64,000 nt of DNA from Theionarchaea archaeon (GTDB lineage Archaea > Methanobacteriota_B > Thermococci > Methanofastidiosales > SZ-28-30): NCBI GenBank assembly GCA_018992685.1, contig JACVGT010000019.1, forward strand, positions 64,001 through 128,000, in the 5' to 3' direction. Within the stretch, counting starts at the first letter, position 1. Each line of letters starts with the position of its first letter. Made by a program: the position numbers and the translations under genes. Below the pieces are notes generated by a model, which saw only the letters and a program-made list of their open reading frames with translations, was not told the DNA's origin and ran no database searches. Below, piece by piece: positions 4,358 to 53,924 of the stretch.

Positions 4358-4759
4358 ATGCTGAAAGGAATGCTTATCCAGTTCGTCAAATTCTGCCTGG
4401 TAGGGAGCACCGGAGCTTTGATCAACCTGGGACTGCTCTACCTCCTTACTGAATTCTGTCACATGTGGTATATCCTTTCTGCTGCTGTGGGGTTCACGGT
4501 GGCTGTTCTAAACAACTTTGTGTGGAACAGATCGTGGACCTTCAAGAACAAAAGTCCCCGCATTCCCAGACAACTCCTCCTCTTCTTCATCATTAATGTC
4601 ATTTCTCTGTGTATCAACCTGTCTGTATTGTACATGCTCACTGAATACGCGGGGATGTGGTATATGAAAGCCCAGATTGTGGCTATTCTTGTGGCAGTCA
4701 GCAACAACTTCCTTGGAAACAGAAGGTTCACCTTCTCCCTTCTCGTCCTTAACTTTTGA
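4358..4759 (+). CDS. GtrA family membrane protein
   Basis: KFCLVG...NNFVWNRSWTF...NFLGNRRFTF, 4 TM segments. Confidence 0.9.
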   Translation: MLKGMLIQFVKFCLVGSTGALINLGLLYLLTEFCHMWYILSAAVGFTVAVLNNFVWNRSWTFKNKSPRIPRQLLLFFIINVISLCINLSVLYMLTEYAGMWYMKAQIVAILVAVSNNFLGNRRFTFSLLVLNF

Positions 4760-36901: not shown

Positions 36902-37993
36902 TCAGAATTCTCGAGCAACAGGCCTGTGGGCATTCCATAGTTGAGCCGGATTGAGACAGGTGAATTCCTTTGAAAGGCAGGGAGCTATCAGTGACATAAC
37001 ATTCCCTCCACCACTGATCCATTTTTCCCACGCCTGTTTGGCGCGGCCGTCGGAAGCGTACAATCCCATGCTCTTGAACGGTTCCAGACTCTCCTGGTCG
37101 TACAGGAAACTCCATATCGCCAATTCCATTTCAAGGTCCTGAGTTAGCTTGAAAAACCTTTCAACAAATTCGGCTTGTTCTGATTCGCTGCTCTCCCAAC
37201 CTGGAGGACTGGAATCTGTGTGCTAGCCAATCTCAACAAATGCGATGGGGTTTTGTGTGTGCTGTTGAATGTCTGTGTAGTAGTCTGCGGGGATTTTTGA
37301 AGGCGTCTCATATATCAATCCCGGATAGGTGGTGAAGGCTGCAATGTCTGAAGCGAATCTATCAAGGAGGAACCAGTGAGCAGTCTCTGGATCATTTGCA
37401 CCGCCATATAATCCGCCGTTCAGTCCTTTCATTTTTTCCAGTTGAAAGACAGTGAAGACCACAGTGCTTGGTGACACTTCTTTCACTGCATCATACACCT
37501 CACGGTAGAGCGTGACGAATTTCTCAAAGTCAGCAGGGGACTTTTGATAGAGAACATTCACCTCAATGCCGAAGCCGAGATATTCGGGGCTATGTGTTCG
37601 GGCAAAGGTGACTGCACTGGTCACGTAAGTCTGGGTTGTCGCTTCATTCAGGGGGCGTGCTACCCTTCCAGTAGACTGTGTGAAAAATTGAGTTAATACG
37701 AGGGGAGTATAGTGGTAGGTTGAAGCCAAGTCTGTTATGACGGCTGGACCGCCCCTGTCTGTCTCAAGCTCAATCCAATCTCCAGTCCAGGATATGATTT
37801 CTCCTGCCAGGACCGCTTTCTCAAAGAACTCTGTGAAATCATCAGCCCGGAAGCTCTTTGGAGAAAGACTGACACCTTTCAGTGGAATGGATTCCCTTCT
37901 GGTTTCTGCCAGATGACTGTCTTCCTGCCCAATGCAGGTAGTCAGTAGGGCCACAATGACAAGGATGATCATTATTCCTGCTGGGTTCTTCAT
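36902..37993 (-). pseudogene. Glycoside-hydrolase-like (clan GH-A TIM barrel) lipoprotein interrupted by an in-frame TAG at 37223-37225
   Basis: Lipobox LLTTC, GIEVN, FTTYP, FVEIG*; the same frame continues HTDSSPPGWESSESEQAEF...WSFLYD...SMGL...K.AW. Confidence 0.75.
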
Positions 37994-38795: not shown

Positions 38796-39629
38796 ATGAT
38801 CATTCGGGAGTTTGATCCCTGGAAGTCACGCCTGTGTACCTGTCCACCCAAATACTCTCTGAATCCCTACACAGGATGTGATCATCGATGTGTGTACTGT
38901 TATATTACGGGGTACATTACGAATGCTTTCCACTGCAGGCCAAAATCTGATCTGTTGACCAGTTTGAAAAGGGAATTGAAGAAGATCGACAGCCATAAAA
39001 TCATCTCTATGGCAAACAGTTCAGATCCCTACCCTCAGCTGGAGAGGAAGATGGAATTGACCAGGAAGGTGGTTCTCCTGTTTGCCAGGGAGAACTTCAT
39101 GTTCCACATTGTCACCAAGTCTGATCTCGTAACCCGGGACATTGATGTGTTGAAAGATGCAGCCTGCGCTGTTGCAATCACGATTACCACCATGGACGAG
39201 GTCCTTGCCAGGAGGCTGGAACCAGGGGCGCCTCCTCCTGAAAAGAGAGTTGAAGCACTGAGACGACTGAAAGAGAGCGGAATTCCAGTCTCTGTGAGAA
39301 TTGATCCCATTATCCCTGGGGTTACAGCCCCTGAAGAAGTGCTTCAACAGGTCCCCTTTGTCGACCATGTGACAGCTTCCACACTGAAACTGCGACCTGA
39401 TGCAATCAGGAGAATGATGGCAGCAGTTCCAGAGGTAATGGCAACTCTGAAACCCCTCTATACCGAAAGGATTGGAAATGCCCTGTACTTACCTGAAAGA
39501 GTCCGGTTTCATACGTTGAACTCACTTGAAAAAGCGTGCAGAGAGAACAACGTGTCATTTGGCACCTGCAGAGAAGGGTTGAACAGTGGAAGTAGCTGTG
39601 ATGGGAGTCATCTTATACGTGACAGGTGA
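38796..39629 (+). CDS. Radical SAM protein (SPL-like archaeal family)
   Basis: LNPYTGCDHRCVYCY, SSDPYP, RIDPIIP, CREG..CDGSH. Confidence 0.88.
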   Translation: MIIREFDPWKSRLCTCPPKYSLNPYTGCDHRCVYCYITGYITNAFHCRPKSDLLTSLKRELKKIDSHKIISMANSSDPYPQLERKMELTRKVVLLFARENFMFHIVTKSDLVTRDIDVLKDAACAVAITITTMDEVLARRLEPGAPPPEKRVEALRRLKESGIPVSVRIDPIIPGVTAPEEVLQQVPFVDHVTASTLKLRPDAIRRMMAAVPEVMATLKPLYTERIGNALYLPERVRFHTLNSLEKACRENNVSFGTCREGLNSGSSCDGSHLIRDR

Positions 39630-39655: not shown

Positions 39656-40168
39656 TCAGATAGGCTGAGAAGCCTCAATAGCCTCTCGGGCAAATTGGTC
39701 CTTCTTGCATGATATACAGTAAGATTCAATGTTGTTCCTGTCCTTATCAAGGAGTCCGACCTTTTCTATCTTCTTTCTGATCTCTTCCATGTGTCTCCTG
39801 GTAGTAATCACTTTCCCACATCCCTGACACAGGATAAGGTCATGTTCAATCTCATCATAGGACTCTGCCCTGTTTAAGGTGGCCATTTCAAACTTCTGGG
39901 TAAGGTTGATCCCCTCCCAGGGGCAGATATCCTGGCAGCTCCGGCAAAAAATGCACAACCCATGGTCGATTCTCATGGTCCTGGTCTTTTTCTCATCTAC
40001 AATGGTGATGGCCTTTGGGGGGCACACCGCAGCGCAGGCGCCGCACCCAACGCACTCATCGGTGAACTCTGTCCTCCCTCTGAATCCTTCAGGGGCTGGA
40101 GAAGGCTCAAACGGATATTTTACTGTAAAAGGTTTCTTAAACAAGGAAAATAGTGCTTCAAGTTCCAT
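39656..40168 (-). CDS. Membrane-bound hydrogenase Fe-S subunit (MbhN/NuoI-like)
   Basis: T.KYPF, CVGCGACAAVCP, CIFCRSCQDICP plus extra CxxC pairs. Confidence 0.9.
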   Translation of the reverse strand: MELEALFSLFKKPFTVKYPFEPSPAPEGFRGRTEFTDECVGCGACAAVCPPKAITIVDEKKTRTMRIDHGLCIFCRSCQDICPWEGINLTQKFEMATLNRAESYDEIEHDLILCQGCGKVITTRRHMEEIRKKIEKVGLLDKDRNNIESYCISCKKDQFAREAIEASQPI

Positions 40169-41052
40169 TAAATCACCACCCTTACGAGATCAATGACTGC
40201 CAGAACCGCCATGTATTTCCAGAAGAAAACAAAACTCTGTTCTGTCTTCACCCTGGCTGAAATGACCTTGATAAAAATGAACAGGAGCCACAACAGCCCA
40301 CCAGTAATCAAGAACATCCACCAGTTCTGCCAGAAGAACAGGATAACTACCAGAGAGATCACCGTAAACACTTTGACCTGGTTGGAAAGGGTGAAAATTG
40401 CCAACCTGTACCCGGAGTACTCCACCAGAGGTCCTCCCAGAATTTCCTGTTCGGCTTCTGGTATGTCGAAGGGTTGCAACCCGATCTTGGCGGGTACAAT
40501 GCTCAAGAAGGCAATGCAGGCAAAGGGAAGCTGGTAGAACAACATGCCGTGAACTTCCTGGGCCTCAGCTATTCCTGTCAAGGAAAAACTGCCTGCCCTC
40601 ACTGCCACCGCCACAATGGAAATTGCCAGGGGCAGTTCATAGGCAAAGAGCTGGGTTACTTCTCTCGATCCTCCCACAGCGCCAAAGGGGCTGGCTGAAG
40701 AAAATCCTCCAACTGCCAGCATGATTGACGACATGTTCAGCACATAAATGACCACAATCACATCGCCAGCAAAGGACAGTCCCCACACCGGGAACAGCAT
40801 GGGCACCACCAGGATAGAAGCCAGAGCAATGATGGGAGCCCAGGTGAACAGAGCGCCCGCTTTCTCAGGCCTAACACTGTCTTTGGACAGTAACTTCACG
40901 AAATCATAGAAGGGCTGCAAAAATGGTGGGCCACGTCTGTTCTGCATGCGTGCTCTCACCTTTCGGTACATCCCTGCATACAGGAACGTCATCACCGAGG
41001 TGAATAACAGCCCCGGAATGATGAAAATCGAAATCAATGGATTGAGACTCAT
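40168..41052 (-). CDS. Membrane anchor subunit (MbhM/NuoH-like)
   Basis: ARMQNRRGPP..QPFYDFVKL, PFDIPEAEQE..GPLVEYSG. SD aggtga overlaps the upstream stop. Confidence 0.92.
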   Translation of the reverse strand: MSLNPLISIFIIPGLLFTSVMTFLYAGMYRKVRARMQNRRGPPFLQPFYDFVKLLSKDSVRPEKAGALFTWAPIIALASILVVPMLFPVWGLSFAGDVIVVIYVLNMSSIMLAVGGFSSASPFGAVGGSREVTQLFAYELPLAISIVAVAVRAGSFSLTGIAEAQEVHGMLFYQLPFACIAFLSIVPAKIGLQPFDIPEAEQEILGGPLVEYSGYRLAIFTLSNQVKVFTVISLVVILFFWQNWWMFLITGGLLWLLFIFIKVISARVKTEQSFVFFWKYMAVLAVIDLVRVVI

Positions 41053-41056
41053 GATA

Positions 41057-42142
41057 TCACCTATCCGTACAGCAGAAACACGGGTCAATGCTTGCCAGCG
41101 TAATAGGAACGTCACCCAGGGTGTCCCCCTCCAGCATCACCGGGACTGCCTGTACATTGGCATATGTGGGGGCACGTATTTTCACCCGCTCAGGATAAAA
41201 GGTGCCGTTGGACCTGACATAGTGGAACACTTCTCCGCGAGGAGCTTCGTATCTTCCAACTCCTTCGCCAGGTGGGATTTCTTTCACTGGAACTGCTATT
41301 TCCTTTCCCTTCAACCCCTTGAGAGCTGCTACTGCCTGTCTGATGATTTTCACTGATTCGAAAACCTCAAGGAGCCTGACTTTTGCCCTGGCCATATTAT
41401 CTTCTTCATCCAGGACGATTTTCTCGAAGTCCACTCTATCATATGCAAGGTGTGGATCATCCTTCCTCACATCAACAGCATAGCCTGACGCTCGGGCCAG
41501 AGGACCTACTGTACACAGCCTCCGTGCATCGTCTCTGGGCAGTGTCCCAGTTCCTACCAGTCGTGCTCTGATGGTCCTGTTTCTCAGGAAAGAATCAATG
41601 TAGTGTTCTGTCCTGCGCTCCACAACCTCGAGAGCGGTCAGCAGACCCGGGATCTGCTTTTCAGTGATGTCCTTCCTGCATCCTCCAACAGTATTCCATG
41701 CGTAATGGTTCCTGTTACCCGTTATTGTTTCAAGCTGATCCAGAACGAATTCTCTGTCTCTCCACGTGTACATGAACAGTGTTTCAATCCCTATTATTTC
41801 AGCAGCTATTCCCGCCCACAACAAGTGGGAGTGAATCCTTTCCAGCTCAGCAATGATCATCCTCGAGTATTCAGCTCTTTCAGGCAGTGTGACACCAGCA
41901 ATGTCCTCTACTGCCTGTGTGAATGCCAGAGGATGGGACATGGAACAGATGCCGCAGATTCGTTCCACCAGTAGTATGTCCTGTTCATAGGTTTTTCTTT
42001 CTGCAAGCTTCTCTACGCCTCTGTGGTTGTATCCCATGGTAATATCTACGTTGATGACTTTTTCTCCTTCTGCATACACTTTCAAGCGCTCAGGTTCTGC
42101 CAGAGCCAGGTGCTGGGGTCCAAATTGTACAACGACATCCAT
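41057..42142 (-). CDS. Group-4 [NiFe]-hydrogenase large subunit (MbhL/EchE-like)
   Basis: GPQH, HRGVEK, L1 ERICGICSMSH, L2 DPCFCCTDR then stop. Confidence 0.95.
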   Translation of the reverse strand: MDVVVQFGPQHLALAEPERLKVYAEGEKVINVDITMGYNHRGVEKLAERKTYEQDILLVERICGICSMSHPLAFTQAVEDIAGVTLPERAEYSRMIIAELERIHSHLLWAGIAAEIIGIETLFMYTWRDREFVLDQLETITGNRNHYAWNTVGGCRKDITEKQIPGLLTALEVVERRTEHYIDSFLRNRTIRARLVGTGTLPRDDARRLCTVGPLARASGYAVDVRKDDPHLAYDRVDFEKIVLDEEDNMARAKVRLLEVFESVKIIRQAVAALKGLKGKEIAVPVKEIPPGEGVGRYEAPRGEVFHYVRSNGTFYPERVKIRAPTYANVQAVPVMLEGDTLGDVPITLASIDPCFCCTDR

Positions 42143-42143
42143 T

Positions 42144-42563
42144 TCAATACCTCCTCAAAGGATATTCTGTATAGTCATCAGGAAGGAACAGGTGCCGGGG
42201 ATCGGGGTGATTGACCACAATGATACCCATCATTTCCATGGCTTCCCTCTCGTACCAGGCTGCAGATGGGTAGAAATCAGATATGGTCTCAATCCTGGGA
42301 TTTCCCCGTGGAGCAGACGTCTTCAGGCTCACCTGCAGGGGGGTAATCTCGAAGTGATAGACCAGTTCCAGCTCTTCGCCCAGGTCCACAGAAGAGATCA
42401 CTGAGAGGTGGCCTCCCATATCCTGAAAGAGCTTGACTGCCTGTCTGTGGGATCCATTCTGCACCTTGATAAATACTCTGTTTCTCCGCGTCGGGGTAAC
42501 CTCCAGCACATTCTCCCTGAGATGAGTTCTCAACATTTCTTTCAACTCCGGAACAGTGACCAT
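42144..42563 (-). CDS. MbhK/NuoC-like subunit
   Basis: AWYEREAMEMMG...HPDPRHLFLPDD..YPLRR. Confidence 0.9.
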   Translation of the reverse strand: MVTVPELKEMLRTHLRENVLEVTPTRRNRVFIKVQNGSHRQAVKLFQDMGGHLSVISSVDLGEELELVYHFEITPLQVSLKTSAPRGNPRIETISDFYPSAAWYEREAMEMMGIIVVNHPDPRHLFLPDDYTEYPLRRY

Positions 42564-42992
42564 TTACTCACCCCACAGAGCATTCAGTGCCGTGACAACC
42601 CCGTGCAGAATGGCCTGAGGCCTCGGTGGACATCCCGGAATGTATGCAGCCACCGGAATTACCTTGTCCGCAGGGCCATATGATGCATAGGTCTCATTGA
42701 AGATGCCTTTGGTGATGGCACAGGAACCAATGGCTACTGCAGCCTTTGGGTCCATGGTTTGCTCATATAATCGTTTCAGTACATCCCTTGTCTTTAGTGT
42801 AATAATTCCAGTCACTACGATGATATCTGCATGACGAGGATTTGGCTTTAAGACTCCTCCAAACCGTTCCACATCAAACCGGGGGGCAAGAGCGGCCAGA
42901 ACTTCGATATCGCAGTTATTGCATGACCCGCAGCTCACGTGAAGCAGCCAGGGGGATTTCTTCCTGCAGTAATTCACCATTTTATCCAGCAT
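42564..42992 (-). CDS. [NiFe]-hydrogenase small subunit (MbhJ/NuoB-like)
   Basis: SCNNCDIE, PRHAD, IGSCA, YIPGCPPRP. Confidence 0.95.
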   Translation of the reverse strand: MLDKMVNYCRKKSPWLLHVSCGSCNNCDIEVLAALAPRFDVERFGGVLKPNPRHADIIVVTGIITLKTRDVLKRLYEQTMDPKAAVAIGSCAITKGIFNETYASYGPADKVIPVAAYIPGCPPRPQAILHGVVTALNALWGE

Positions 42993-44809
42993 TAAACCAC
43001 CCTCCACAAATACACGATCACCACAACAAGAGTGAATACTACCCAGAACACGTAGTTCTGCAGCAGTCCGCTGTGTTCAGATTTCAGGTACCGGTAGAAT
43101 CGGCCAAGCGGAGCCATGATACCATAGTACAGGTTTGAACCACCTATATTGACATAGTAGTCTTCTTCCCCACAGATATATACGTCGTCTCTGGCATCAG
43201 GCTTCTTGTCTGATTTGTCTGATTCTGGCGCCAACGCTTTCCCTGTCCTTAGGGTCAAGAACACAAAGGCCATGAGAAACAGCAGTACCAGCGAGATCAT
43301 GACAGGACTCCAGTACGCATATTCAAGGTTCAACCCCAGGTTGTAGGCACCCACGTCCACCGGGACACCCAGGAGGGAAGAGGACGCTTTCCCTACCAGC
43401 GTCAGAGGCAGCCTGGGGTAGACGCCAAATATGATGCATGTTACCGCAAGGATACCCATGGGGACCTTCATCAGGAAGGGAACATCTTTCACCTCTCTGA
43501 ATTCCTCTTTGAGCTGGCCCAGGAATGCAGAGTCCAGAGCCTTCAAGAACGAGCTCAAGGTGCCAACACTGGCCAGGATCAGGACTACGGTGAAAAAGTA
43601 GTACTCCTTCTGGTAGGTACCCACGTAAAGCATCCACTTGCTGACGAACCCATTGAAGGGAGGGACTCCTGAAATTGCCAGCGCCCCTATGAAAAAGCAG
43701 AACGTGGTAAAAGGCATCTTCTTGGAAAGTCCACCCATCCTGTCAAGGTCCCACGTGCCAATCCGGTAGAAAACAGCCCCTGCACACAGGAAGAGGAGCC
43801 CTTTGTATACGGCATTGTTCATGAGATGGAACAGCCCTCCTGAGACTCCCAGAGGTGTCGCCAGTCCGATACCTGCTATAATATAGCCGAGCTGGGAGAC
43901 AGCGTGATAGGACAGCAGCCGTTTGAAGTCGTGCTGCACCAGAGCCATCATGACACCCACGAAGGCTGTAATCACGCCGAAGGTTGCAATCATAGGGCTC
44001 GTGGCATCCATGGCATCAAACACCACGTACAGGACACGGGCAAGAAGATAGACACCAGCCACCTTGAAGGTACCTGCCAGGAGCATGCCCGTGGGAGTGG
44101 GAGCTGCAGGGTAACTGTCAGCAGCCCAGAAATGGAGCGGTACAATCCCTGCCTTGAATCCGAATCCCACAACAAAGAATGCCAGAGCAACAATGTCCAC
44201 AGATGACATGACGATCTTTGACGTGAGGTCCACCATGTTCAGAGTCTGGTACTGGGCATACAGCAGTGCCACTCCAAACAGGATAAACGTGGATACGACA
44301 CCACCCAACGTCAACAACTTGAAAGCAGCTTCCGCTGAATCCCATTTTCTGTGATATGACACCAGAGCATAGGTGGAAACTGACATGATCTCAAAGAAGA
44401 CGTACAGGTTAAACATGTCCCCTGTGAGGACGACACCTGAAATTCCTGCAATCTGGAGACAGAACAGCGTGTAAAACTTTCCTCTGCGGGGATCTTTCCT
44501 CATATAGGGGACAGCATACAGTGCAGAGAAAGAAGCCATTCCTGCTGCCACGCACGCTGCAAAGAGGGATAGTGCGTCAACATACAAGGTAATACCATAG
44601 GGGGGGCTCCTGTTACCCAGTGCATAGACAATCACATCACCAGAGAGAACCTGCGATATCATGGTCAGTCCGCATACCAGGCTCCCTACAAACGCCAGGA
44701 AGGGAATGTAATCCCGCAGCCGGCCTGACCCCAGTCCTACAAGGGGAGTTATGAACGCTGCAGACAGAGGCAGCAAAACCATGAAAATGGGTGCATGTTC
44801 AGTAATCAT
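42992..44809 (-). CDS. Antiporter-like subunit MrpD/MbhH with an MbhI-like C-terminal extension
   Basis: DMFNLYVFFE, KAGIVPLHFW, KRLLSYH, PPFNGFVSKW, then YICGE...HSGLLQNYVFW. Confidence 0.9.
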   Translation of the reverse strand: MITEHAPIFMVLLPLSAAFITPLVGLGSGRLRDYIPFLAFVGSLVCGLTMISQVLSGDVIVYALGNRSPPYGITLYVDALSLFAACVAAGMASFSALYAVPYMRKDPRRGKFYTLFCLQIAGISGVVLTGDMFNLYVFFEIMSVSTYALVSYHRKWDSAEAAFKLLTLGGVVSTFILFGVALLYAQYQTLNMVDLTSKIVMSSVDIVALAFFVVGFGFKAGIVPLHFWAADSYPAAPTPTGMLLAGTFKVAGVYLLARVLYVVFDAMDATSPMIATFGVITAFVGVMMALVQHDFKRLLSYHAVSQLGYIIAGIGLATPLGVSGGLFHLMNNAVYKGLLFLCAGAVFYRIGTWDLDRMGGLSKKMPFTTFCFFIGALAISGVPPFNGFVSKWMLYVGTYQKEYYFFTVVLILASVGTLSSFLKALDSAFLGQLKEEFREVKDVPFLMKVPMGILAVTCIIFGVYPRLPLTLVGKASSSLLGVPVDVGAYNLGLNLEYAYWSPVMISLVLLFLMAFVFLTLRTGKALAPESDKSDKKPDARDDVYICGEEDYYVNIGGSNLYYGIMAPLGRFYRYLKSEHSGLLQNYVFWVVFTLVVVIVYLWRVV

Positions 44810-45156
44810 TCTTTCAACCCCCTGATTTCTGTAATGTCCAGGGTGCCATAATGTCGGTAGAGGACAATAGCTATACTCAAGGCAAGAGCAGTGACACTGA
44901 GCCCGATGACAATGCTGGTCAGCACCAGTGCCTGGGGCAAGGGATCTACCATGACAGCAGTTTCAGAGGTTACGTCAGGCAGGACCACAATGGGAGGTGA
45001 CCCGCCCTGAACGTACCCTGTGGCAATAAGGAAATATTGAACCGCATAGTCCATCAGACTGAGTCCCACCACGATTTTGATGAGATTCTTCTTTACCATG
45101 ACAGCATACAATCCAATGACAAATACAATAGTGCAGACGATATAGTCGATATTCAT
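44806..45156 (-). CDS. MrpC/MbhG subunit
   Basis: NLIKIVVGL, DPLPQALVLTSIVIG. Confidence 0.92.
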   Translation of the reverse strand: MNIDYIVCTIVFVIGLYAVMVKKNLIKIVVGLSLMDYAVQYFLIATGYVQGGSPPIVVLPDVTSETAVMVDPLPQALVLTSIVIGLSVTALALSIAIVLYRHYGTLDITEIRGLKE

Positions 45157-45581
45157 GGGGGACTCCTCCTCATGTTGTTGAAAATGGCTGTCAGCTCTGT
45201 CCCCACTTTAACACCAATTGCAATGTAGATCGGACCCAGAATCCCTGCGCTGAGCAACGTTCCTGGTTGTCCCAGTCCAACAGCATTCCACAGGAAATTT
45301 CCTCCTTTCAGTATGCCAATACACCCGAGGCCAATGAAACACAAGGCTGCTACACTTTCGAGAGCAGTCATCACTGATTCGGGAATTCTCAGTGTGCCAA
45401 ATCCCAGGTAGAGCAGGATGATGCTTGAAGCAATGATGGTACCTCCCTGAAACCCACCTCCAGGTGTCAGATGGCCATGAACAAAGATATAGACCCCATA
45501 CACAAAAGCCAGGGGGAAAACCACGCGGGTTATGCTCTTCACAATGACACTGGGTTCGCGGGGGTCCTCATTCTTTTTCAT
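45153..45581 (-). CDS. MrpB/MbhF subunit
   Basis: GHLTPGGGFQGG. Confidence 0.92.
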   Translation of the reverse strand: MKKNEDPREPSVIVKSITRVVFPLAFVYGVYIFVHGHLTPGGGFQGGTIIASSIILLYLGFGTLRIPESVMTALESVAALCFIGLGCIGILKGGNFLWNAVGLGQPGTLLSAGILGPIYIAIGVKVGTELTAIFNNMRRSPP

Positions 45582-45849
45582 TGTCTTCCCTCCGCTTCCT
45601 CCAGAATAGTGCAGCCACTCCTGTCGTCGCAGTGAACAGGACAGTGACTTCTCCCAGCGTGTCATATCCTCTATAGTCCAGCACAATATTCGTCACCAGG
45701 TTGGTGGCTCCGGCTTCTTCAAGTCCGTCTTCCAGGTAGTGCTCTCCGACCCCGATAGAATGGTCTCCAAACCTGTTGACACCAGTAACTGTGTAGATCA
45801 GAACTGACATCAGTAATCCCAGCAAGAGATAGCTCAGTGCACGCTTCAT
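45568..45849 (-). CDS. MbhE-like subunit
   Basis: NLVTNIVLDYRGYDTLGE. Confidence 0.9.
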   Translation of the reverse strand: MKRALSYLLLGLLMSVLIYTVTGVNRFGDHSIGVGEHYLEDGLEEAGATNLVTNIVLDYRGYDTLGEVTVLFTATTGVAALFWRKRREDNEKE

Positions 45850-46082
45850 TCTTCTGACCTCCGGGTATGGCTAATGGCTAAAAGCAGGATAAATGTGGAC
45901 AGAGCAGCCCCAATAGCAACTTCTGTCATGGCTACATCTGGAGCCTGCAGCTGATAGAAGAGTAAAGCCAGGCACAGGCTGCACATCCCCAGAGACACGG
46001 CTGTATATATCAGATCTTTGAACTCTACGGCCACCAGCGCACTGGCAGCAAAGAGCACCAGCAAGATGAGATGTGAGATCAT
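45846..46082 (-). CDS. MbhD-like subunit (DUF4040)
   Basis: APDVAMTEVAIG. Confidence 0.9.
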   Translation of the reverse strand: MISHLILLVLFAASALVAVEFKDLIYTAVSLGMCSLCLALLFYQLQAPDVAMTEVAIGAALSTFILLLAISHTRRSEE

Positions 46083-46405
46083 TCAAACTCCTCCTTGAAC
46101 GCGTCATAACTCCCGATTTTCATGCGGGTTCCTGATCTGTATGCAGCCCGGGCTATTGCATGGGCAGATGTTGGATTTCCCAGGACAATGAAGACGATGA
46201 TAATGACAGCTTTGATGGCCACTTCTCCCTGCATGAGGAGTGCCACACCCAGAAGCGTGCACATGGCACCCAGCGTGGTGCATTTGGTGGCTGCATGCAT
46301 CCGGGTGAACATGTCGGGAAGTCGAAGCAATCCAATAGCACCCACCAGGAGAAAGAAGGTGCCTATTGCGATGAGAATATCTGCGATGAGAGTTCCTGCC
46401 ATCAT
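46079..46405 (-). CDS. MrpG/MbhC subunit
   Basis: RLPDMFTRMHAATK, PTSAHAIARAA. Confidence 0.92.
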   Translation of the reverse strand: MMAGTLIADILIAIGTFFLLVGAIGLLRLPDMFTRMHAATKCTTLGAMCTLLGVALLMQGEVAIKAVIIIVFIVLGNPTSAHAIARAAYRSGTRMKIGSYDAFKEEFE

Positions 46406-46665
46406 AATCCTCCCTCCAAGTAACGTGCAATGGCAATAACAGCAATAAAACTCAGCAGCGCGTAGATAATTGCCACATCTATCAACCACGTTCTATTATA
46501 GACAACGCCAAGAACAACCAGGAGAGCAGTAGTAATGGTGGTAGCAGCATCCAGAGCAATGACCCGGTCCCCTGCTGTAGGACCTTTCACGGCTCTCAAG
46601 AATGAAAGCAGAAATGCGAAAGAAATGACAAATACTGCACCCTGCAGAAAAGAGAGTTCCATCAT
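46402..46665 (-). CDS. MrpF/MbhB subunit
   Basis: KGPTAGDRVIALD. Confidence 0.92.
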   Translation of the reverse strand: MMELSFLQGAVFVISFAFLLSFLRAVKGPTAGDRVIALDAATTITTALLVVLGVVYNRTWLIDVAIIYALLSFIAVIAIARYLEGGL

Positions 46666-47153
46666 GAAAACACCTTGTTCAAGAATCTCATGAATCGGCC
46701 AGTAATCATCTCTGCAGCTTCCTGTGGGTTATACGTTTGAATGTTCAGCCAGTGCACATAGAAATTAGTGCCCACAACGTCCAGCGTAAGGGTCCCGGGA
46801 GTCAGAGTAATTGAATTTGCCAGAAGAGTCCTTCCGTAGTCTGACTGCAGGGATACAGGTACCCGGACGATTCCTGGGTTTATGGGCATTCTCGGATGGA
46901 GCACTCGATAGGCCACATCAAGGTTGGATTTGATGATCTCCCAGAGCAGGGCAGGGATATACACGAGGAAGAAGACCACTCTCCTGGGATGAAGGCTCAC
47001 AGCAGGGAACAGGTTCCTGGACAGGACTGCCACGATGAAAGCTGCAAGCAACCCCACTGCAAGAGGAGGATACCCCTGTTCCTGGATTTCAGACCAGGTC
47101 AGAAGAACCCACAGGATCAACGTTGCGATGAATGCAGAGATACATTGCTTCAT
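46662..47153 (-). CDS. MrpE/MbhA subunit
   Basis: NLDVA, LANSITLTPGTLT, YVHWL. Confidence 0.92.
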   Translation of the reverse strand: MKQCISAFIATLILWVLLTWSEIQEQGYPPLAVGLLAAFIVAVLSRNLFPAVSLHPRRVVFFLVYIPALLWEIIKSNLDVAYRVLHPRMPINPGIVRVPVSLQSDYGRTLLANSITLTPGTLTLDVVGTNFYVHWLNIQTYNPQEAAEMITGRFMRFLNKVFS

Positions 47154-47157
47154 AGGT

Positions 47158-48336
47158 TCACCTCAGAACTTCCACCACTTTGGTAGAGTCCATTTCCACT
47201 CTAATACCCGCGTCAGCCAGTTGATTCCGTACTGAAGGGGTTATAAACGGCATTGTTCCCATGATCACAGGGATCTTTTGTGACGCCAGTGCAAGAGCAG
47301 CTGTCAACATCCTGGGGTCTCTCCACCTGGGCATGAGGACCGTGAGGGCTCGTATCCCCAGGAGTTTTGCCGGCTCGCAGCATCCCGCATTGATCACACA
47401 GGGGACCTGGAATTCGTTCATGAGAGCACATTGATGATCAGGATGTTCCAGCAGGCCACATGTCAAGTTCAGAACCATGAATTTCTGGCTGATCAACTGG
47501 TGAACGATGGCATCGAGGTTCCAGGTGCTCTTTCCAGACGCACAGCCCATGATTGCCACCACTCCCGCAATGAGACCAGAATCCACCGCCTTGTTGAGTG
47601 TTTCAGTGTCCACAGGATAACCCACTGTTGCACGTCGAGGAGTAACCTTTCTGAACGATGCCTGGTCCCTCCTGGAGAAATTTTCAACAGCAGTCTCACA
47701 GGCAGCAGCCACATCTCCACCTTGATACACATAGTCTATCATGTCGCCCGCTTCTTCAAGAATGTCAATTCCACCCAGCAGGGGAATCCCGAAATTCGAG
47801 GCAGCTTCCGCCCCTTCACACAGGGCACCTACAAGGTTAATCCCTCTGGCAGTGCGTCCCCTGGCCAGATCCCTCATTTTCTGACTTCTGGCCTGCTTTA
47901 TTATGTCAGGAGAGTATACAGTGGTCACAATGTTCACTGCGTCCTTCTGTAAGACTCCAAGGCCAGACTCAACATTCCGAGGTTTTTTCTGATCTGACTG
48001 CCACTGGCCAACCAGCGTCTGCGAAGGTTCCAGAATGGAACCACTGGCTTTCACCAGATCCTGAATAGTAACCCCTGCCTCATGGGTGTGAATCATCCTA
48101 TCTAGTGAAAGAGGCACAGAGATTCCCACTCCATAATCAGTCAATCCCTTGAGGACATGCAGTCCCAGGTTCACAACATTCATACCTTCTGCATCAATCC
48201 CACAGGCCCCCACGTGGGGTTCTTCATCAAAAGGGTTTACAATACATGGCCCTAAATCACAATACGTACACATCATACCGGCAGAAGCCAGCTCATTCTG
48301 AGGCTTCTGAGCCTGTAATCGATCCATTGTTTTCAT
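47158..48336 (-). CDS. Miniaturised, degenerate anaerobic CO dehydrogenase (CooS/HCP superfamily) homologue
   Basis: DRLQAQKPQ...CTYCDLGPCIVNPF...GACG, ESGLGVLQKDAVNI, GINLVGALCEG, AVENFSRR, GVVAIMGC, AGCC; only 392 aa. Confidence 0.85.
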   Translation of the reverse strand: MKTMDRLQAQKPQNELASAGMMCTYCDLGPCIVNPFDEEPHVGACGIDAEGMNVVNLGLHVLKGLTDYGVGISVPLSLDRMIHTHEAGVTIQDLVKASGSILEPSQTLVGQWQSDQKKPRNVESGLGVLQKDAVNIVTTVYSPDIIKQARSQKMRDLARGRTARGINLVGALCEGAEAASNFGIPLLGGIDILEEAGDMIDYVYQGGDVAAACETAVENFSRRDQASFRKVTPRRATVGYPVDTETLNKAVDSGLIAGVVAIMGCASGKSTWNLDAIVHQLISQKFMVLNLTCGLLEHPDHQCALMNEFQVPCVINAGCCEPAKLLGIRALTVLMPRWRDPRMLTAALALASQKIPVIMGTMPFITPSVRNQLADAGIRVEMDSTKVVEVLR

Positions 48337-48797
48337 GCCTTTCCTCTCCTCTCTTTCATGATCTGTGAAAACTCACCATATACGAGAGCATTGGTGGGGC
48401 AGGCACGGACACATGCGGGTCCTCCTACATTCCTGCACAGGTCACACTTTACCATTATCTGTCCACGGGAATCAGGTTCAATGATTCCAATGGGACAGGC
48501 CACACTGCACGATCTGCACCCGATACACAGACCATCATCGATAACCACGATGCCATCGTCTCCCTTTTCAATGGCGTCCACCGGGCAGGCTTCCATGCAG
48601 GGAGGAACCTCACAGTGACGGCAGCTGAGCACAACAGTCTGTGTATTATCACCCTTCAGGAAAATCCGAGTCTTGGGAAGAAGAGGTGCAGTAAGAGCCT
48701 GGTATACCGTGTCTGCATGCTTCCATGCCATGGAACATGCTACTTCACAATTGCGGCAAGCCACACATCGCTCTGAATCATAATAAAGTGCTTTCAT
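48333..48797 (-). CDS. CooF/HycB-like 4x[4Fe-4S] ferredoxin
   Basis: CVACRNCEVAC, CRHC..PCMEACP, CIGCRSCSVACP, KCDLC...PACVRACP. Confidence 0.92.
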   Translation of the reverse strand: MKALYYDSERCVACRNCEVACSMAWKHADTVYQALTAPLLPKTRIFLKGDNTQTVVLSCRHCEVPPCMEACPVDAIEKGDDGIVVIDDGLCIGCRSCSVACPIGIIEPDSRGQIMVKCDLCRNVGGPACVRACPTNALVYGEFSQIMKERRGKA

Positions 48798-48820
48798 TCG
48801 GGAACCCCTTCTGGTGCTAC

Positions 48821-48835
48821 CTTTTAAATTTTACG
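48821..48835 (-). promoter_or_regulatory. BRE/TATA promoter of the CooF-like/CooS-like/Mrp-Mbh operon
   Basis: cgtaaaatttaaaag about 25 nt upstream of ATG 48797 (near-leaderless). Confidence 0.55.
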
Positions 48836-49351
48836 CATGAAAACACATGTCCTCCGTGGACCCCCATGTCTCCCCTCTCATCGGGCAATAGTATCCTAGA
48901 ATCTGTATTTATCGTGTGGATGTGCCTTGTCAAATCCATGGTACCTCCTCACAGCCAGGTAGCCCACGCTGCTTCTGTATCTTGCCAGGCTATCGATTTC
49001 AGCACAGACAATGATCTGGAAAAGTGTCAACGAAAGAAGAGAAAGCATTCTCCTGGGTGTGAAAGATTACGATACGATTCCTGGGTTGAAAGGTATTGCC
49101 TGTTCCCGCCCCAGGTTCGACAGCATGCCACGGATTATCAGTATCTGTAGAACCCAACTCCTGAACGTGGGTAGAGAATGGTTACGAGCTTCTTTCCCTC
49201 AAGAAGTATGACTACTCCTCTTTCAGTCTCAGCTGGGCGATCACTCATAGGGCAGGCCTCGCACCCTGACCGGGGAAAAGTTTTTATGCTCACCTCCATC
49301 ATGTAATAACGCTAAGAGTTATTGATTAACAACATCGGCCCGAGGCACACC

Positions 49352-50152
49352 ATGAGCAAAGAACTGCTGATCCAGAAAGGCAAAGAAATGCTGCTCGAAA
49401 CGGGAGCCAAAGCTCTGCTGTTGTATGTTGAATCAGATTCAGATTTGGGACTTGCGCCTGAGAACACCATTTTTGTGTATGACAACAAGAAGTTCAGTGA
49501 AATTGATGACACGGGAGTTCTCATTCCACTGAACGTAAGTCCTGAAGAGAGAATGAACCTCGCTATTGCCGGAGCCATGGAAAAAGGCCTGCTCCACAAG
49601 AATGACAAAGTGATATACGTGAATAATAACAGTATTTCATTAAAAACAGCGAAAGAACAAATGGATAAAGGGATATACAAGATCCTGTTCACTGCCGCAA
49701 ATATTGACCCTGACGTGGTCAAAGAAGTCCTGGAAATCGCTGTTGAATTGGGGAAGAAAGGGCGAGAAGGAAAGCCTGTAGGAAGCACCTTCATCATTGG
49801 AGACTCAGGAGAAGTCATGAACAGGTCAACTCAGATCACATACAATCCCTTTCAGGGGAGCATGGTCAATATTCAGGACGACGTGGTGCGCAGCATGATA
49901 AAGGAGTATTCAAGGTTGGATGGAGCTTTTATCATTAGTGGCAAAGGGAAGATCATTGCGGCAGCACGATTTCTTGAATGCGGAAAGGAAGGAATCAAGA
50001 TGCCCAAAGGATTGGGTGCTCGTCACATGGCTGCAGCATGGATAACCAAGAAGACAGATAGCATTGGTGTTGTCCTCTCAGAATCAGATAATATGATTCG
50101 TGTCTTCTGGGACGGTGAGATGATTGAAGAGCTCGATCCTGAGAAGTTGTAG
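49352..50152 (+). CDS. dacZ: Diadenylate cyclase, DacZ type
   Basis: GREGKPVG, LDGAFII, GLGARHMAAA, VLSES; next to mscS. Confidence 0.85.
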   Translation: MSKELLIQKGKEMLLETGAKALLLYVESDSDLGLAPENTIFVYDNKKFSEIDDTGVLIPLNVSPEERMNLAIAGAMEKGLLHKNDKVIYVNNNSISLKTAKEQMDKGIYKILFTAANIDPDVVKEVLEIAVELGKKGREGKPVGSTFIIGDSGEVMNRSTQITYNPFQGSMVNIQDDVVRSMIKEYSRLDGAFIISGKGKIIAAARFLECGKEGIKMPKGLGARHMAAAWITKKTDSIGVVLSESDNMIRVFWDGEMIEELDPEKL

Positions 50153-50155
50153 GAG

Positions 50156-50983
50156 GTGATGCTGATTTCATTTATTGAGGAATGGTTTGGACAAGTGATC
50201 AATCAACTGGAAGAACTGATCCCTCGACTGGTTAAATTCCTGGGAATCCTCATAGTCGCCTATATTCTGGGGAGAATTCTCGCCTGGCTGGTAGCCACAA
50301 TTCTTCGCAAACTGGAGTTTGAGCGGCTGACCAAGAAATCAGAGGCAGAGAGAATTGCACGACGATTCGGCATGTCGTTAATTGGACTGATTGGATCGGT
50401 TGTGAAGTGGACCATTTATCTGATCGGGCTGCAGGTGGCTGTTGAAGCTGCTGGTCTTGATATTCTCAATCGGTTGATGCGGGGGATTGTCAGTTACATG
50501 CCCAACCTCATTCTGGCTCTAGCTATCTTCATTGTGGGAATACTGATAGCTGAGAAAGTGGGCAACTTTGTGCAGGGTCTGGCCGAAGATGAAAAGGTTC
50601 CTCGATTCTGGATCCTGGGAAACCTTGTGCGGTACACAATATATCTGGTCGTAATGATTATGGCCCTCTCACAACTGAAGATATCCACTGATGTCCTGAT
50701 AATCGTTACCGGTTCGATCTTTGCTGCCATCGGGTTGATTGTAGTCATTAGTTTGAGAGATGTTGGACCAAACGTTGCTGCAGGGATCCATTTGCTGTAC
50801 GAAAAGACATTGAACGTCGGAGATACAGTCAAAGTCGGCCGGTATGAAGGGATCATTGAAGATATTGGCATTGTGAAATCTATCATAAAGAATGAAGAGG
50901 GAGAGTTCATTGTCATCCCCAACTCACAGTTGATGAGAAGCATCATAATAAAGAAACTGTCTCCTGAAGAAGCACTGGAGTAG
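50156..50983 (+). CDS. mscS: Small-conductance mechanosensitive channel
   Basis: TM-helix repeats, NVAAG, VGDTVKVG..EG.IEDIG, IPNS. Confidence 0.88.
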   Translation: MMLISFIEEWFGQVINQLEELIPRLVKFLGILIVAYILGRILAWLVATILRKLEFERLTKKSEAERIARRFGMSLIGLIGSVVKWTIYLIGLQVAVEAAGLDILNRLMRGIVSYMPNLILALAIFIVGILIAEKVGNFVQGLAEDEKVPRFWILGNLVRYTIYLVVMIMALSQLKISTDVLIIVTGSIFAAIGLIVVISLRDVGPNVAAGIHLLYEKTLNVGDTVKVGRYEGIIEDIGIVKSIIKNEEGEFIVIPNSQLMRSIIIKKLSPEEALE

Positions 50984-52358: not shown

Positions 52359-52484
52359 GACCTCCATTCAGCGCAGATGCGGGTTGTCACAGTAAAGCTC
52401 ATATACATTGAGGTCCGTGCATTGATTGATGGTTGAGCTAACTCAGGTTGGATGCTCACGAGAAGCCACCATGAGGTGCTGGCT

Positions 52485-53924
52485 ATGGATATTTTGAATG
52501 TGCAGCAACGGTTGAATTCTGATGTAGAGAAAATGATAACAGAGAGGGACATTCAGGGACTGGTAACCACATTAGAGAAGGGAAAAGACTTTGCAACCCG
52601 AATGAGAGCAGCTGAAGGCCTAGGATTTATCAGAGATGAGAGAGCCATTACACCATTAATGAACCTATTGAAGAGGAACCGAGGTGACGTCAAAGCTCTT
52701 GCACTCGTAGCTCTGGGGAGAATTCAGGGCAGAAGGGCTACTCAACTCCTTATTGACACGTTGAAAGATGATTCTCCTTACTGCCGCGAAGTATCAGCGA
52801 TGATGCTCGGAGACTCAGGGGATGAGAGAGCTGTCGCCCCACTGATAGAGGCATTGAATGACCTGGATCATATTGTCGGGGAGAAAGCACGGTGGGCTCT
52901 GGTGGAGTTTGGAACGATGGCATTGTATCCGCTGATAGATGCACTTGAACATGGAAGCTCAGGAACTCGAGAGGCAGCAATCCGGGCTCTGGGAGAAATA
53001 GGTGATGAACAGGCTACCTCTCCTCTGATACGGGCACTTGAGGACGAAAAGGATACCATACGCGAGGCGGCAGCTCAGGCCCTGGGAAGGATGAAGGGTA
53101 AGAGAGCTGTTCAACCCTTGATTCGCCTTCTTGAGGACAGGAACCCCAGTTGCCGCGAAGAAGCTGCTCGGGCTTTAGGTCTGATCAAGGATGGAGGAGC
53201 AGTAGGTGCTCTAATCAACATCTGTGGAGACGAAAACAAGGACGTTCGAGAGTCCGCAGTTCAAGCACTGGGAGAACTGGGTGATAAACGAGCCGTTGCT
53301 TCATTAACGAATTCTCTCCAAGACACGAATAAAGAGGTTCGGAAAGCAGCAGTTCAATCCCTCGGCAAAATAGGAGAAGAACAGGTGAAAGAACTTCTTA
53401 TTCGGCTGTTACAGGAGAGTGACCGTACGTTACGGGAAGGAGCAGCAATGGCCCTGGGAGAGCTTCAGGAACTCAGAGCAGTAGATCCTCTCATATACGC
53501 TCTAGAGGACCCCAGTGGAAGGGTCCGTGAAGCAGCAATCAGAGCACTGGGGATGCTCAGAGATAGAAGAGCTCTTGAACCATTGAGACGGGCGCTCAAA
53601 GAAGAATGGATTCGATGTAGCGTCAGGATGATGGGCTTTGAAACCAGAGTTACCAATTTGCCGGTCCTTGACAATAATTGGAATCAAATGCAGATTCTGA
53701 GCGCTCTCTACGAAATTCAGGGTGATAAGACCACACAATCTTTGATTGAAGCCCTCGAGGAGGCACAAATCAACATTGGGAGAGATCTGACGCAGACCAT
53801 CCACGACTACATTGAGAGATGGGGCGAAGTATTCCCTGGAGTCACCCGTGCTCAAAACAGATTCTTGAGAGCCTGGAGAATTCTCAAAGAAGGATTGACA
53901 GACACAGAGCGGGAATCGCAGTAG
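52485..53924 (+). CDS. HEAT/PBS-lyase repeat protein
   Basis: About 10-11 31-aa repeats R.AA..ALG.I.D.RAV.PLI.AL.D; SD gaggtg. Confidence 0.9.
   Translation: MDILNVQQRLNSDVEKMITERDIQGLVTTLEKGKDFATRMRAAEGLGFIRDERAITPLMNLLKRNRGDVKALALVALGRIQGRRATQLLIDTLKDDSPYCREVSAMMLGDSGDERAVAPLIEALNDLDHIVGEKARWALVEFGTMALYPLIDALEHGSSGTREAAIRALGEIGDEQATSPLIRALEDEKDTIREAAAQALGRMKGKRAVQPLIRLLEDRNPSCREEAARALGLIKDGGAVGALINICGDENKDVRESAVQALGELGDKRAVASLTNSLQDTNKEVRKAAVQSLGKIGEEQVKELLIRLLQESDRTLREGAAMALGELQELRAVDPLIYALEDPSGRVREAAIRALGMLRDRRALEPLRRALKEEWIRCSVRMMGFETRVTNLPVLDNNWNQMQILSALYEIQGDKTTQSLIEALEEAQINIGRDLTQTIHDYIERWGEVFPGVTRAQNRFLRAWRILKEGLTDTERESQ

Follow-up and report, generated by a model that had tools for sequence, protein, structure and literature searches.

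The Mrp-linked hydrogenases of group 4 are modular and related to complex I, and their input module defines the substrates that can be respired. The Mrp-Mbh-Codh complex of Thermococcus onnurineus (cooF-cooS-cooC-mch-mnh; HydDB group 4b) has at its head cooF directly before cooS, which encodes a carbon monoxide dehydrogenase (CODH) of about 650 amino acids (aa) with full motifs, and includes cooC in the operon. The membrane-bound hydrogenase (MBH; group 4d) of Pyrococcus and Thermococcus has no input module, and Escherichia coli formate hydrogenlyase (FHL; FdhF-HycB-HycF-HycG-HycE) forms a chain from an input molybdoenzyme through a four-cluster ferredoxin, a NuoI-like protein and a small subunit to the NiFe site (PMC9474812). 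A survey of CODHs concluded that coupling to hydrogenases is confined to those with complete motifs (PMC6344411). Here we describe an operon in 64,000 nucleotides (nt) of DNA from an uncultured sediment archaeon, Theionarchaea archaeon (assembly GCA_018992685.1, contig JACVGT010000019.1, positions 64,001 to 128,000; the whole stretch is called the window) that joins a CooF-like ferredoxin and a 392-aa cooS homologue, here named CooS*, to a group 4 [NiFe] hydrogenase with a full Mrp membrane arm. CooS* is probably a selected, non-CODH subunit of the hydrogenase complex, and the operon would then be a conserved counter-example to the complete-motif rule (PMC6344411). The reading that we favor, with a probability of roughly 45%, is a CO-type respiratory complex whose CODH has been reduced to a nickel-free iron-sulfur (Fe-S) electron inlet, probably fed by ferredoxin, with production of H2 and pumping of ions.

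The operon is a minus-strand run at positions 39656 to 48797 (Table 1). A preliminary description of the window had placed this run correctly but counted 14 genes; there are 15, each found as an open reading frame (ORF) at its assigned position, and the genes it listed also sum to 15. Its gene identities (ferredoxin, CooS-like, MrpE/F/G, MbhD/E, MrpB/C/D and NuoB/C/D/H/I-like subunits) were borne out by Pfam, which matched Fer4, Prismane, MNHE, MrpF, PhaG, MbhD, MbhE, MnhB, Oxidored_q2, Proton_antipo_M, Oxidored_q6, Complex1_30kDa, Complex1_49kDa plus NiFeSe_Hases, NADHdh and Fer4 over the operon. Neighboring genes overlap at 11/14 junctions, and gaps of 0, 1 and 4 nt separate them at the remaining three; with the preferred downstream ATG starts, mrpD and nuoB overlap by only 1 nt and a 4-nt gap separates nuoD from nuoH. 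The single TATA box that had been proposed was confirmed, as the same 9-mer, TTTAAAAGG, stands at identical spacing in all six loci with upstream DNA (the window and 5/5 others), and the transcript is probably leaderless. A scan for sigma-70 promoters remained at chance level (10 found versus 9.6 expected).

The AlphaFold model of CooS* (pLDDT 87, pTM 0.86) superimposed on CODH 6t7j with a Z score of 26.5 and a root mean square deviation of 2.3 Å over 372 aligned residues (Foldseek E value against CODH of 1e-22), compared with a lower Z score of 22.8 for class III hybrid cluster protein (HCP), and its ESM Atlas matches were Prismane/CODH clusters only. Residues were tabulated for 25 Theionarchaea-type sequences, 9 sequences of a standalone sister family described below and 22 full-length CooS sequences (counts are given in this order), with positions mapped through a Thermococcales CooS and numbered as in C. 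hydrogenoformans CODH-II, partly after PMC10502027. The four B-cluster cysteines are kept throughout (25/25, 9/9, 21 to 22/22). Both D-cluster cysteines are gone from the short sequences (Cys39 in 0/25, 0/9, 22/22; Cys47 in 0/25, 0/9, 19/22), the pair being replaced in 25/25 Theionarchaea-type sequences by Asn, which is Asn14 of CooS* at the Cys39 position, and by Met or Leu. His93 is Tyr in all short sequences (25/25, 9/9) versus His in 22/22 full-length ones, a substitution described as common in clades C, D and G. His261 is present in 0/25, 0/9 and 22/22, with Tyr or Asn in its place in 25/25 Theionarchaea-type sequences, and Cys333 is deleted in 25/25 of these and in the standalone family and present in 22/22 full-length sequences. 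Lys563 is Arg in 25/25 but Lys in 9/9 and 22/22, and the CooS* of the window also lacks His96 and Cys294. As had been noted from the sequence at the outset, then, key CODH residues are missing. Retained are Cys295 (25/25, 0/9, 22/22), Cys446 (23/25, 0/9, 22/22), Cys476 (24/25, 0/9, 22/22) and Cys526 (25/25, 9/9, 22/22), the four C-site cysteines of the window protein being C173, C265, C293 and C320. An extra Cys precedes Cys526 in 21/25 Theionarchaea-type sequences, and Asp or Glu occupies the position of the HCP Glu ligand in 23/25 versus 0/22 full-length ones.

CooS* thus has the fold and the B-cluster cysteines of a Ni,Fe-CODH and lacks the D-cluster pair, the complete set of C-cluster ligands and His93/Lys563; it falls below the curated cutoff of TIGR01702 (90 versus 478 bits). 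Some clade A CODH groups are likewise reported to lack the D-cluster pair (PMC6344411). Because His261, Cys333 and other C-cluster and acid-base residues are lost, a nickel-containing C-cluster is unlikely in CooS*, and we infer that nickel and CO activity were lost with it; to judge from its residual cysteines, the hydrogenase-linked family could plausibly hold a simpler Fe-S site.

It is improbable that CooS* is still a CODH with an atypical cluster and that the complex, like that of Thermococcus, respires CO with formation of H2. The whole CODH fold, the cooF-cooS order, a NuoI subunit of CO type that is 43% identical to its CO-linked homologue in genome G119, the retention of Cys526, Cys446, Cys476 and Cys295, and the presence of cooC in the genome would all agree with CO respiration, but His261, Cys333, His93, His96 and both D-cluster cysteines are missing. 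According to the CODH survey, only the complete-motif groups E-1, F-1 and F-2 accompany energy-converting hydrogenases, and the Cys2 position of the C-cluster is Cys, Asp or Glu in all groups of its Table 2 (PMC6344411); RfCODH has a single Cys333-to-Asp change together with an activity that has dropped to 13 mU/mg (PMC13592312). The cooC gene, moreover, is unlinked. It had been reported absent from the window, which is correct but misleading, since a CooC homologue (39% identity, E value of 2e-43) is encoded on contig C8 of the host genome (G000, 91% complete) at positions 82209 to 83045; its orthologue in G003, another genome of the same family, adjoins cdhA.

Several members of the CooS* family carry the JGI label "hydroxylamine reductase", and "hypothetical protein" is also used as a database label. 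HCP resembles CooS* in being a dimer without a D-cluster, in its B-type cubane and in an acidic residue at the Glu434 position, but it has His and Cys ligands equivalent to His261 and Cys333, both lost from CooS*, which shares with the HCP ligand set three Cys and the acidic 561 position and has Cys for Glu at 295. An HCP identity was rejected on these ligands, both sequence and structure being nearer CooS. A frameshifted full-length cooS was also rejected, as the ORF is uninterrupted, covers the CODH chain between residues ~40 and ~620 and has relatives of equal length. The mini-CooS of Thermosinus (clade G) is another internally shortened CooS near cooF, but it is defined as keeping all 11 Cys and the His (PMC3328121), and CooS* is without four of those 12 ligands. 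C. hydrogenoformans CODH-V (clade D; PMC10502027) and RfCODH (clade B; PMC13592312) are likened to CooS* as CODH scaffolds with little or no CO activity; they are described as full length, with the D-cluster kept and not on a respiratory hydrogenase.

With the CooS* profile, clade-E-like full-length CooS scored highest (138 to 142 bits, versus 52 to 74 for P0200, P0178 and the local clade-D-like CooS). A tree grouped CooS* with the short P0200 and P0178 at an SH support of 94, with a warning of long branches, and a quick mixture-model tree does not resolve this grouping; the trees, built without the named mini-CooS sequence, do not place the origin of CooS* among the CODH clades. P0200 (437 aa) has the appearance of a complete-motif mini-CooS without the CooS*-type deletion over Cys333, and P0178 (412 aa) has His93 changed to Tyr, Lys563 to Arg and no His261, which suggests that CooS was miniaturized repeatedly. 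The full-length CooS of families f3 and f4 (L050 to L053, L055) has Glu at Cys295 and Tyr at His93, as in clade D and CODH-V, and is not the nearest relative of CooS*.

A protein search, in which 7,999 word-sharing candidates were scored, returned 25 full-length CooS* clusters including the query (390 to 397 aa, 56 to 86% identity) and 2 partial ones; the next matches were full-length CooS at an E value of 1e-17. Those close homologues of CooS* and the large subunit that bear a name belong to Theionarchaea. Synteny with the hydrogenase is conserved in the six other loci examined (L017, L018 and L027 to L030; L031 and L032 duplicate two of them): mrpE follows CooS* and the ferredoxin gene precedes it in 6/6, the L017 contig covering only the last 41 ferredoxin codons. 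The full operon order is visible in L018 and L027, and the other loci stop at contig edges. Within the host family f1 (n = 4), orthologues of CooS*, the ferredoxin and the large subunit all occur in G000 to G002, and all three went undetected in G003 (91% complete). By the Nei-Gojobori method, cooS* gave dN/dS ratios of 0.067 (window versus G001), 0.103 and 0.123, which are rough since the three usable pairs have a dS of 1.1 to 1.7; in the other six of the nine pairs printed, synonymous sites were saturated and no ratio resulted. Six other operon genes ranged from 0.016 to 0.091 in the window-G001 pair (seven genes compared overall). By these ratios cooS* is under purifying selection and is not decaying.

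It is accordingly hard to regard CooS* as the relic of a decaying cooS or as a purely structural cap without a redox role, and we consider this the least probable of the alternatives. Its rate of change, the highest in the operon, and its eleven deletions relative to Thermococcus CooS would suit such a fate, but intact ORFs of 390 to 397 aa persist in 25 clusters at 56 to 86% identity, the same large deletions recur in a sister family that is only ~30% identical, dN/dS is 0.07 to 0.12, and the B-cluster cysteines are kept in 34/34 short sequences. A decaying pseudogene was rejected on the intact ORFs, the shared deletions and purifying selection in the three usable pairs.

The sister family stands alone in 6/7 genomes of family f4 (NM3-like; loci L019 to L024; 387 to 396 aa), and among 133 genomes of the phylum the short CooS form was seen only in those six and in three f1 genomes. 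The standalone gene is flanked by genes for an amino-acid-kinase-family protein and an F420 ligase (according to Pfam in L019); the fetched f4 loci contained no Mrp or group 4 genes, and a CooF orthologue was found in 0/7 f4 genomes at an E value of 1e-25. Of the tabulated residues the family keeps only the B-cluster, Tyr93, Cys526 and Lys563. The two short families share the same large deletions and form one clade (support of 100), and the dacZ-mscS pair lies 2.4 to 3.5 kb from cooS* in 6/6 f4 loci and adjoins the operon head in the window and in 3/6 other loci; together these observations point to a single origin at one inherited locus. Since CooS* also occurs alone, its miniaturization is not tied to the operon. 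In one f4 genome, G006 (L020:2406-5661), an F420-type hydrogenase trio encoding a large subunit, a protease and a fused small/FrhB subunit is oriented divergently to the standalone cooS*; it was not seen in the other five f4 loci.

The ferredoxin of the operon has four clusters, is encoded ahead of cooS* and carries the CooF-type insertion after its first cluster motif (residues ~29 to 41), which is common to the Thermococcales CooF rows of the alignment and absent or shorter in FdhB, HydN and aldehyde oxidoreductase (AOR)-type rows. Its local identity is 47 to 53% to FdhB-type proteins versus 38 to 40% to CooF, the ferredoxin tree does not separate CooF from FdhB, and 0/12 of its PDB matches were named CooF. 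The NuoI subunit has as its top NCBIfam match the FHL Fe-S subunit and ends in a CxxC-x33-CxxC quartet that is also found in Mfh- and CO-linked subunits and is absent from 3/3 MbhN rows. It resembles the CxxC-x33/34-CxxC extension of E. coli HycF, which is described as binding HycB, a subunit that resembles CooF and connects to the input enzyme (PMC9474812). By analogy with HycB-HycF, CooF would contact NuoI, and since this NuoI has the HycB-binding extension of FHL, CooF probably covers its distal face.

Two copies of CooS* and one ferredoxin were co-folded with alignments of 27 rows (A1) and 13 rows (A3), a ratio matching the 2 CooS to 1 CooF proposed for T. onnurineus (PMC4731540). The score was 0.74 and the best of three controls 0.00; the mark applied is reached by 116/157 solved complexes and 2/215 mismatched pairs, counts that are only rough for this job. 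The runs agreed in at least 91% of contacts, with a partner pLDDT of at least 82. Contacts were tightest where CooS* residues 11 to 19 of both copies, Asn14 foremost, meet the first-cluster loop of CooF; the interface also includes the CooF insertion. Because these contacts come from both copies at the former D-site, CooF is predicted to cap the dimer two-fold axis where the D-cluster has been vacated, and the model supports binding. Residues 11 to 19 had a pairwise identity of 0.90 among Theionarchaea-type sequences and of 0.14 among standalone ones. Over the 18 interface residues it was 0.79 versus a mean of 0.67 in the former family (3.8% of random draws were as high), 0.18 versus 0.47 in the latter, where the segment of residues 11 to 19 ranks 364/383, and 0.51 versus 0.51 in full-length CooS. 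By this comparison the patch is conserved with this CooF and free to vary in the family where this CooF was not found. The repurposed input module that had been proposed is thus supported by the co-fold, the HycF-type NuoI and the contrast in interface conservation. A literature search for a CooS-CooF structure found none (one unrelated paper was returned).

The large subunit has intact L1 (ERICGICS) and L2 (DPCFCCTDR) motifs, as first described, and terminates directly after L2 with no C-terminal maturation tail. With its NuoB/C/D/H/I core, an antiporter-like subunit and Hyp-like ORFs in the genome, the enzyme is a group 4 energy-converting [NiFe] hydrogenase. Its genes for the membrane arm and the hydrogenase are arranged as in the MBH operons (MrpE-F-G, D, E, B, C, D(H), NuoB-C-D-H-I). 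In the PDB, the large subunit is matched best by MBH of P. furiosus (6cfw_L); unlike the MBH, the operon has an input module and the NuoI Cys quartet. MbhI is probably fused to MbhH, given that the 117- to 122-aa ORFs after MbhH in three Thermococcales Mbh operons match MrpD/MbhH (E values of 1e-6 to 7e-8). The parallel first drawn with carboxydotrophic Thermococcus held for the cooF-cooS head but not for the mch-mnh order, and CooS* is 392 aa in an operon with no cooC. In tree analysis, the large subunit formed its own clade (100/100) outside the Thermococcales Mbh (100/100), Mfh and Ehb clades, with the backbone not resolved; a first tree had been distorted by long outgroups and was rebuilt without them, the CO-linked subunit not being included. 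With its input module and a position outside the MbhL clade, the enzyme is not of group 4d, and with separate NuoC and NuoD and a large subunit outside the Mfh clade it is not of group 4b. The large subunit is 40 to 42% identical to MbhL, 43% to the CO-linked subunit and 52 to 57% to its nearest outside relatives, the named ones being bacterial (Omnitrophota, WOR-1, Aerophobetes and others). It may belong to HydDB group 4g, a loosely clustered group of unknown function (PMC5037454) in which Mrp-linked enzymes of Omnitrophota have been placed (PMC8542988). The CO-linked cluster of G119, the one of six fetched comparison regions with a canonical cooF-cooS-cooC-hydrogenase-mrp layout, shares the NuoI quartet but has a fused NuoCD and its Mrp genes last, whereas NuoC and NuoD are separate here and the order is Mbh-like. 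Compared with E. coli FHL, the input is a CODH-fold protein rather than a molybdoenzyme.

In the reading that we favor, the operon would encode one membrane complex in which an Mrp Na+/H+ module and a group 4 [NiFe] hydrogenase carry a docked arm, (CooS*)2-CooF-NuoI, modeled on that of CO-respiring hydrogenases. CooS* would no longer be a CODH but a nickel-free iron-sulfur cap, its two B-clusters, probably together with a simplified Fe-S center on the four C-site cysteines, being wired directly into a CooF seated on the dimer axis in the former place of the D-cluster. Low-potential electrons would be received by CooS*, the most likely source being soluble ferredoxin that 2-oxoacid and aldehyde oxidoreductases or CdhA have reduced, and would pass through CooF, NuoI and NuoB to the NiFe site, where H2 would be made and ion pumping driven. 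The residual C-site cluster, ferredoxin as donor and the H2-evolving direction are, like the CooF-NuoI contact and the loss of nickel and CO activity, parts of this scheme that we infer. It counts in favor of the scheme that the relatives have a true CODH (CdhA, 3/3) for CO chemistry. Several points weigh against it. CooS* is the fastest-evolving operon gene, with 57 to 63% identity to distant orthologues versus 70 to 89% for the others. The sister family is maintained with neither this CooF nor an orthologue of the hydrogenase (6/7 f4 genomes), so the fold has some role independent of the complex. The co-fold pose may be that of ancestral CooS-CooF docking, because CooF is known to accept electrons at the D-cluster (PMC6344411), and the conservation measured lay within the co-fold alignment, so that the Theionarchaea half of that test is not independent. 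The ferredoxin donor is conjectural, and four C-site cysteines (23 to 25/25) with an Asp or Glu (23/25) exceed the needs of a passive wire and would fit a catalytic site equally.

The main rival, which is rather unlikely but less so than CO respiration, takes up this last point: CooS* would be an enzyme for a non-CO substrate on a remodeled C-site (C173, C265, C293, C319/C320, Asp/Glu340, Arg342 and Tyr68) bearing a hybrid-like or site-differentiated Fe-S(-O) cluster. It would either oxidize a small low-potential donor to yield H2 or, with reverse flow, use H2 to reduce an acceptor such as a nitrogen or sulfur oxide. The C-site cysteines, kept in 23 to 25/25, are lost except C320 in the standalone family; 34/34 short sequences share Tyr68, Glu177, Cys320, Glu321, Lys324, Trp338 and a basic residue at 342; the deletions, including residues 365 to 406 in Thermococcus numbering, could open the site; and CODH-V and clade B RfCODH (PMC13592312) are precedents for a repurposed scaffold. 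Yet the loss of His261 and Cys333 removes 2 of 7 hybrid-cluster ligand positions, Cys446 is His in 2/25 and Cys476 Tyr in 1/25, the operon has no substrate-supply gene, and most of the invariant positions are invariant in full-length CooS too and may be structural. Slightly more doubtful again is that the CODH scaffold was rebuilt as a respiratory input enzyme, a D-cluster-less dimer that uses the cluster of its partner as a D-cluster substitute and a nickel-free hybrid-like Fe-S(-O) site of 4 to 5 Cys plus Asp/Glu to act on a non-CO substrate. It would follow that sediment archaea have an energy-conserving reaction unknown so far and that the standalone family represents a second, further-reduced activity on the same scaffold.

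CooS* might instead be a redox or gas sensor, or a gate, that tunes or protects the hydrogenase (responding to CO, NO or O2 at a labile Fe-S site) and carries no main flux, a role suggested by the loss of the catalytic His and the proton relay with retention of clusters, by a standalone family that retains only the B-cluster and Cys526, and by the redox-dependent binding reported for the FHL input subunit (PMC9474812). Pfam, on the other hand, gives Prismane only, with no DNA-binding or signaling domain, and both its place in the operon and its predicted interface are what a catalytic or electron-input subunit would have. We hold a sensor to be as improbable as CO respiration.

The genome contains one PF03063 locus and, by motif scan only, hypA/B/C/D/F-like ORFs. 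CdhA, CdhC and CdhD/E were found in 3/3 other f1 genomes, and no cdh/acs cluster was found in G000. This is likely due to an assembly gap, because contig C21 of G000 matches G001:C19 up to position 4603 and ends there, ~2 kb before the G001 cdhE (L057, L046), and the host probably carries a true CODH and acetyl-CoA synthase elsewhere; Theionarchaea are reported to retain the Wood-Ljungdahl pathway and Ehb (PMC9635834). An Ehb-like operon, a separate Mrp antiporter and two further NiFe large subunits are encoded elsewhere in G000, and genes that we read from their sequences as AOR-like lie next to related ferredoxins.

The CooS* family is apparently undescribed. Neither it nor the operon architecture was found in the literature searched, which included few subscription papers and no supplements, whose tables may list the operon; PMC9258230 does not mention it in the passages searched. 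The CODH surveys checked drop proteins shorter than 400 aa (PMC8776680, PMC13056359, PMC13240472) or 550 aa (PMC6344411) and would miss CooS* because such filters exclude a 392-aa protein. CooS* represents a natural minimal CODH scaffold and provides a testable model in which the cluster of a partner replaces the D-cluster, which bears on how CooF docks to ordinary CooS. It also cautions that cooF-cooS-hydrogenase synteny alone is no proof of CO respiration. The question is experimentally reachable, as the similar complex of T. onnurineus has previously been transferred into P. furiosus (PMC4731540).

Table 1. Features of the operon (window coordinates) and of related loci elsewhere in the host genome.
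Feature	Position	Strand	Basis or remark
Archaeal TATA box TTTAAAAGG	48820..48828	-	22 nt upstream of cooF ATG
CooF-type 4x[4Fe-4S] ferredoxin-like subunit, 154 aa	48333..48797	-	Pfam Fer4_11; CooF-type insertion
CooS*, CODH-fold protein, 392 aa	47158..48336	-	Prismane E 2e-22; model; residue table
CooS* residues 11-19, former D-cluster segment, predicted CooF docking patch	48280..48306	-	Co-fold interface
CooS* B-cluster motif C23-C26-C31-C45	48202..48270	-	All four Cys kept in family
MrpE/MbhA, 163 aa	46662..47153	-	PF01899
MrpF/MbhB, 87 aa	46402..46665	-	PF04066
MrpG/MbhC, 108 aa	46079..46405	-	PF03334
MbhD, 78 aa	45846..46082	-	PF13244
MbhE, 93 aa	45568..45849	-	PF20501
MrpB/MbhF, 142 aa	45153..45581	-	PF04039
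MrpC/MbhG, 116 aa	44806..45156	-	PF00420
MrpD/MbhH antiporter-like subunit, 605 aa, probably MbhH+MbhI fusion	42992..44809	-	PF00361
Hydrogenase small subunit (NuoB/MbhJ-like), 142 aa from ATG	42564..42992	-	PF01058; alternative GTG 43007
NuoC/MbhK-like subunit, 139 aa	42144..42563	-	PF00329
Group 4 [NiFe] large subunit (NuoD/MbhL-like), 361 aa	41057..42142	-	PF00346, PF00374; L1/L2 motifs
NuoH/MbhM-like membrane anchor, 294 aa from ATG	40168..41052	-	PF00146
NuoI/MbhN-like 2x[4Fe-4S] subunit, 170 aa	39656..40168	-	C-terminal HycF-type Cys quartet C114, C117, C151, C154
Ehb-like operon, standalone Mrp, two NiFe hydrogenases	G000:C15:625-7924; C16:16091-21534; C1:110167-112346; C8:55959

In family f2 (L040, L048, L049), a four-gene NuoB/C/D/I group 4 hydrogenase has hyp-like flanks and no membrane subunits in the fetched stretches, and is possibly a soluble or split group 4 enzyme. 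In Thermococcales loci L025 and L060 to L063, with no hydrogenase in the fetched stretches, cooC / cooF-cooS is followed by a quartet-bearing NuoI-like protein, a flavoprotein-like ORF and a HydN-type ferredoxin.

Around the operon, dacZ (a diadenylate cyclase gene) and a small mechanosensitive channel gene at window positions 49322 to 50983 are divergent from it, and a radical SAM (SPL-like) gene (38796-39629) converges on its end. Nearby ORFs of the window encode a 490-aa HEAT-repeat protein (52452-53924) and a 256-aa protein with a hydrophobic N terminus and no Pfam match (37223-37993). Among four RNA runs checked, run X5 contained a 233-nt contig with ~90% identity to window positions 48250 to 48482, across the cooF/cooS* junction, and a 260-nt contig in mrpD. 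Both come from a relative and may be DNA; they were not used as evidence and are a weak hint only.

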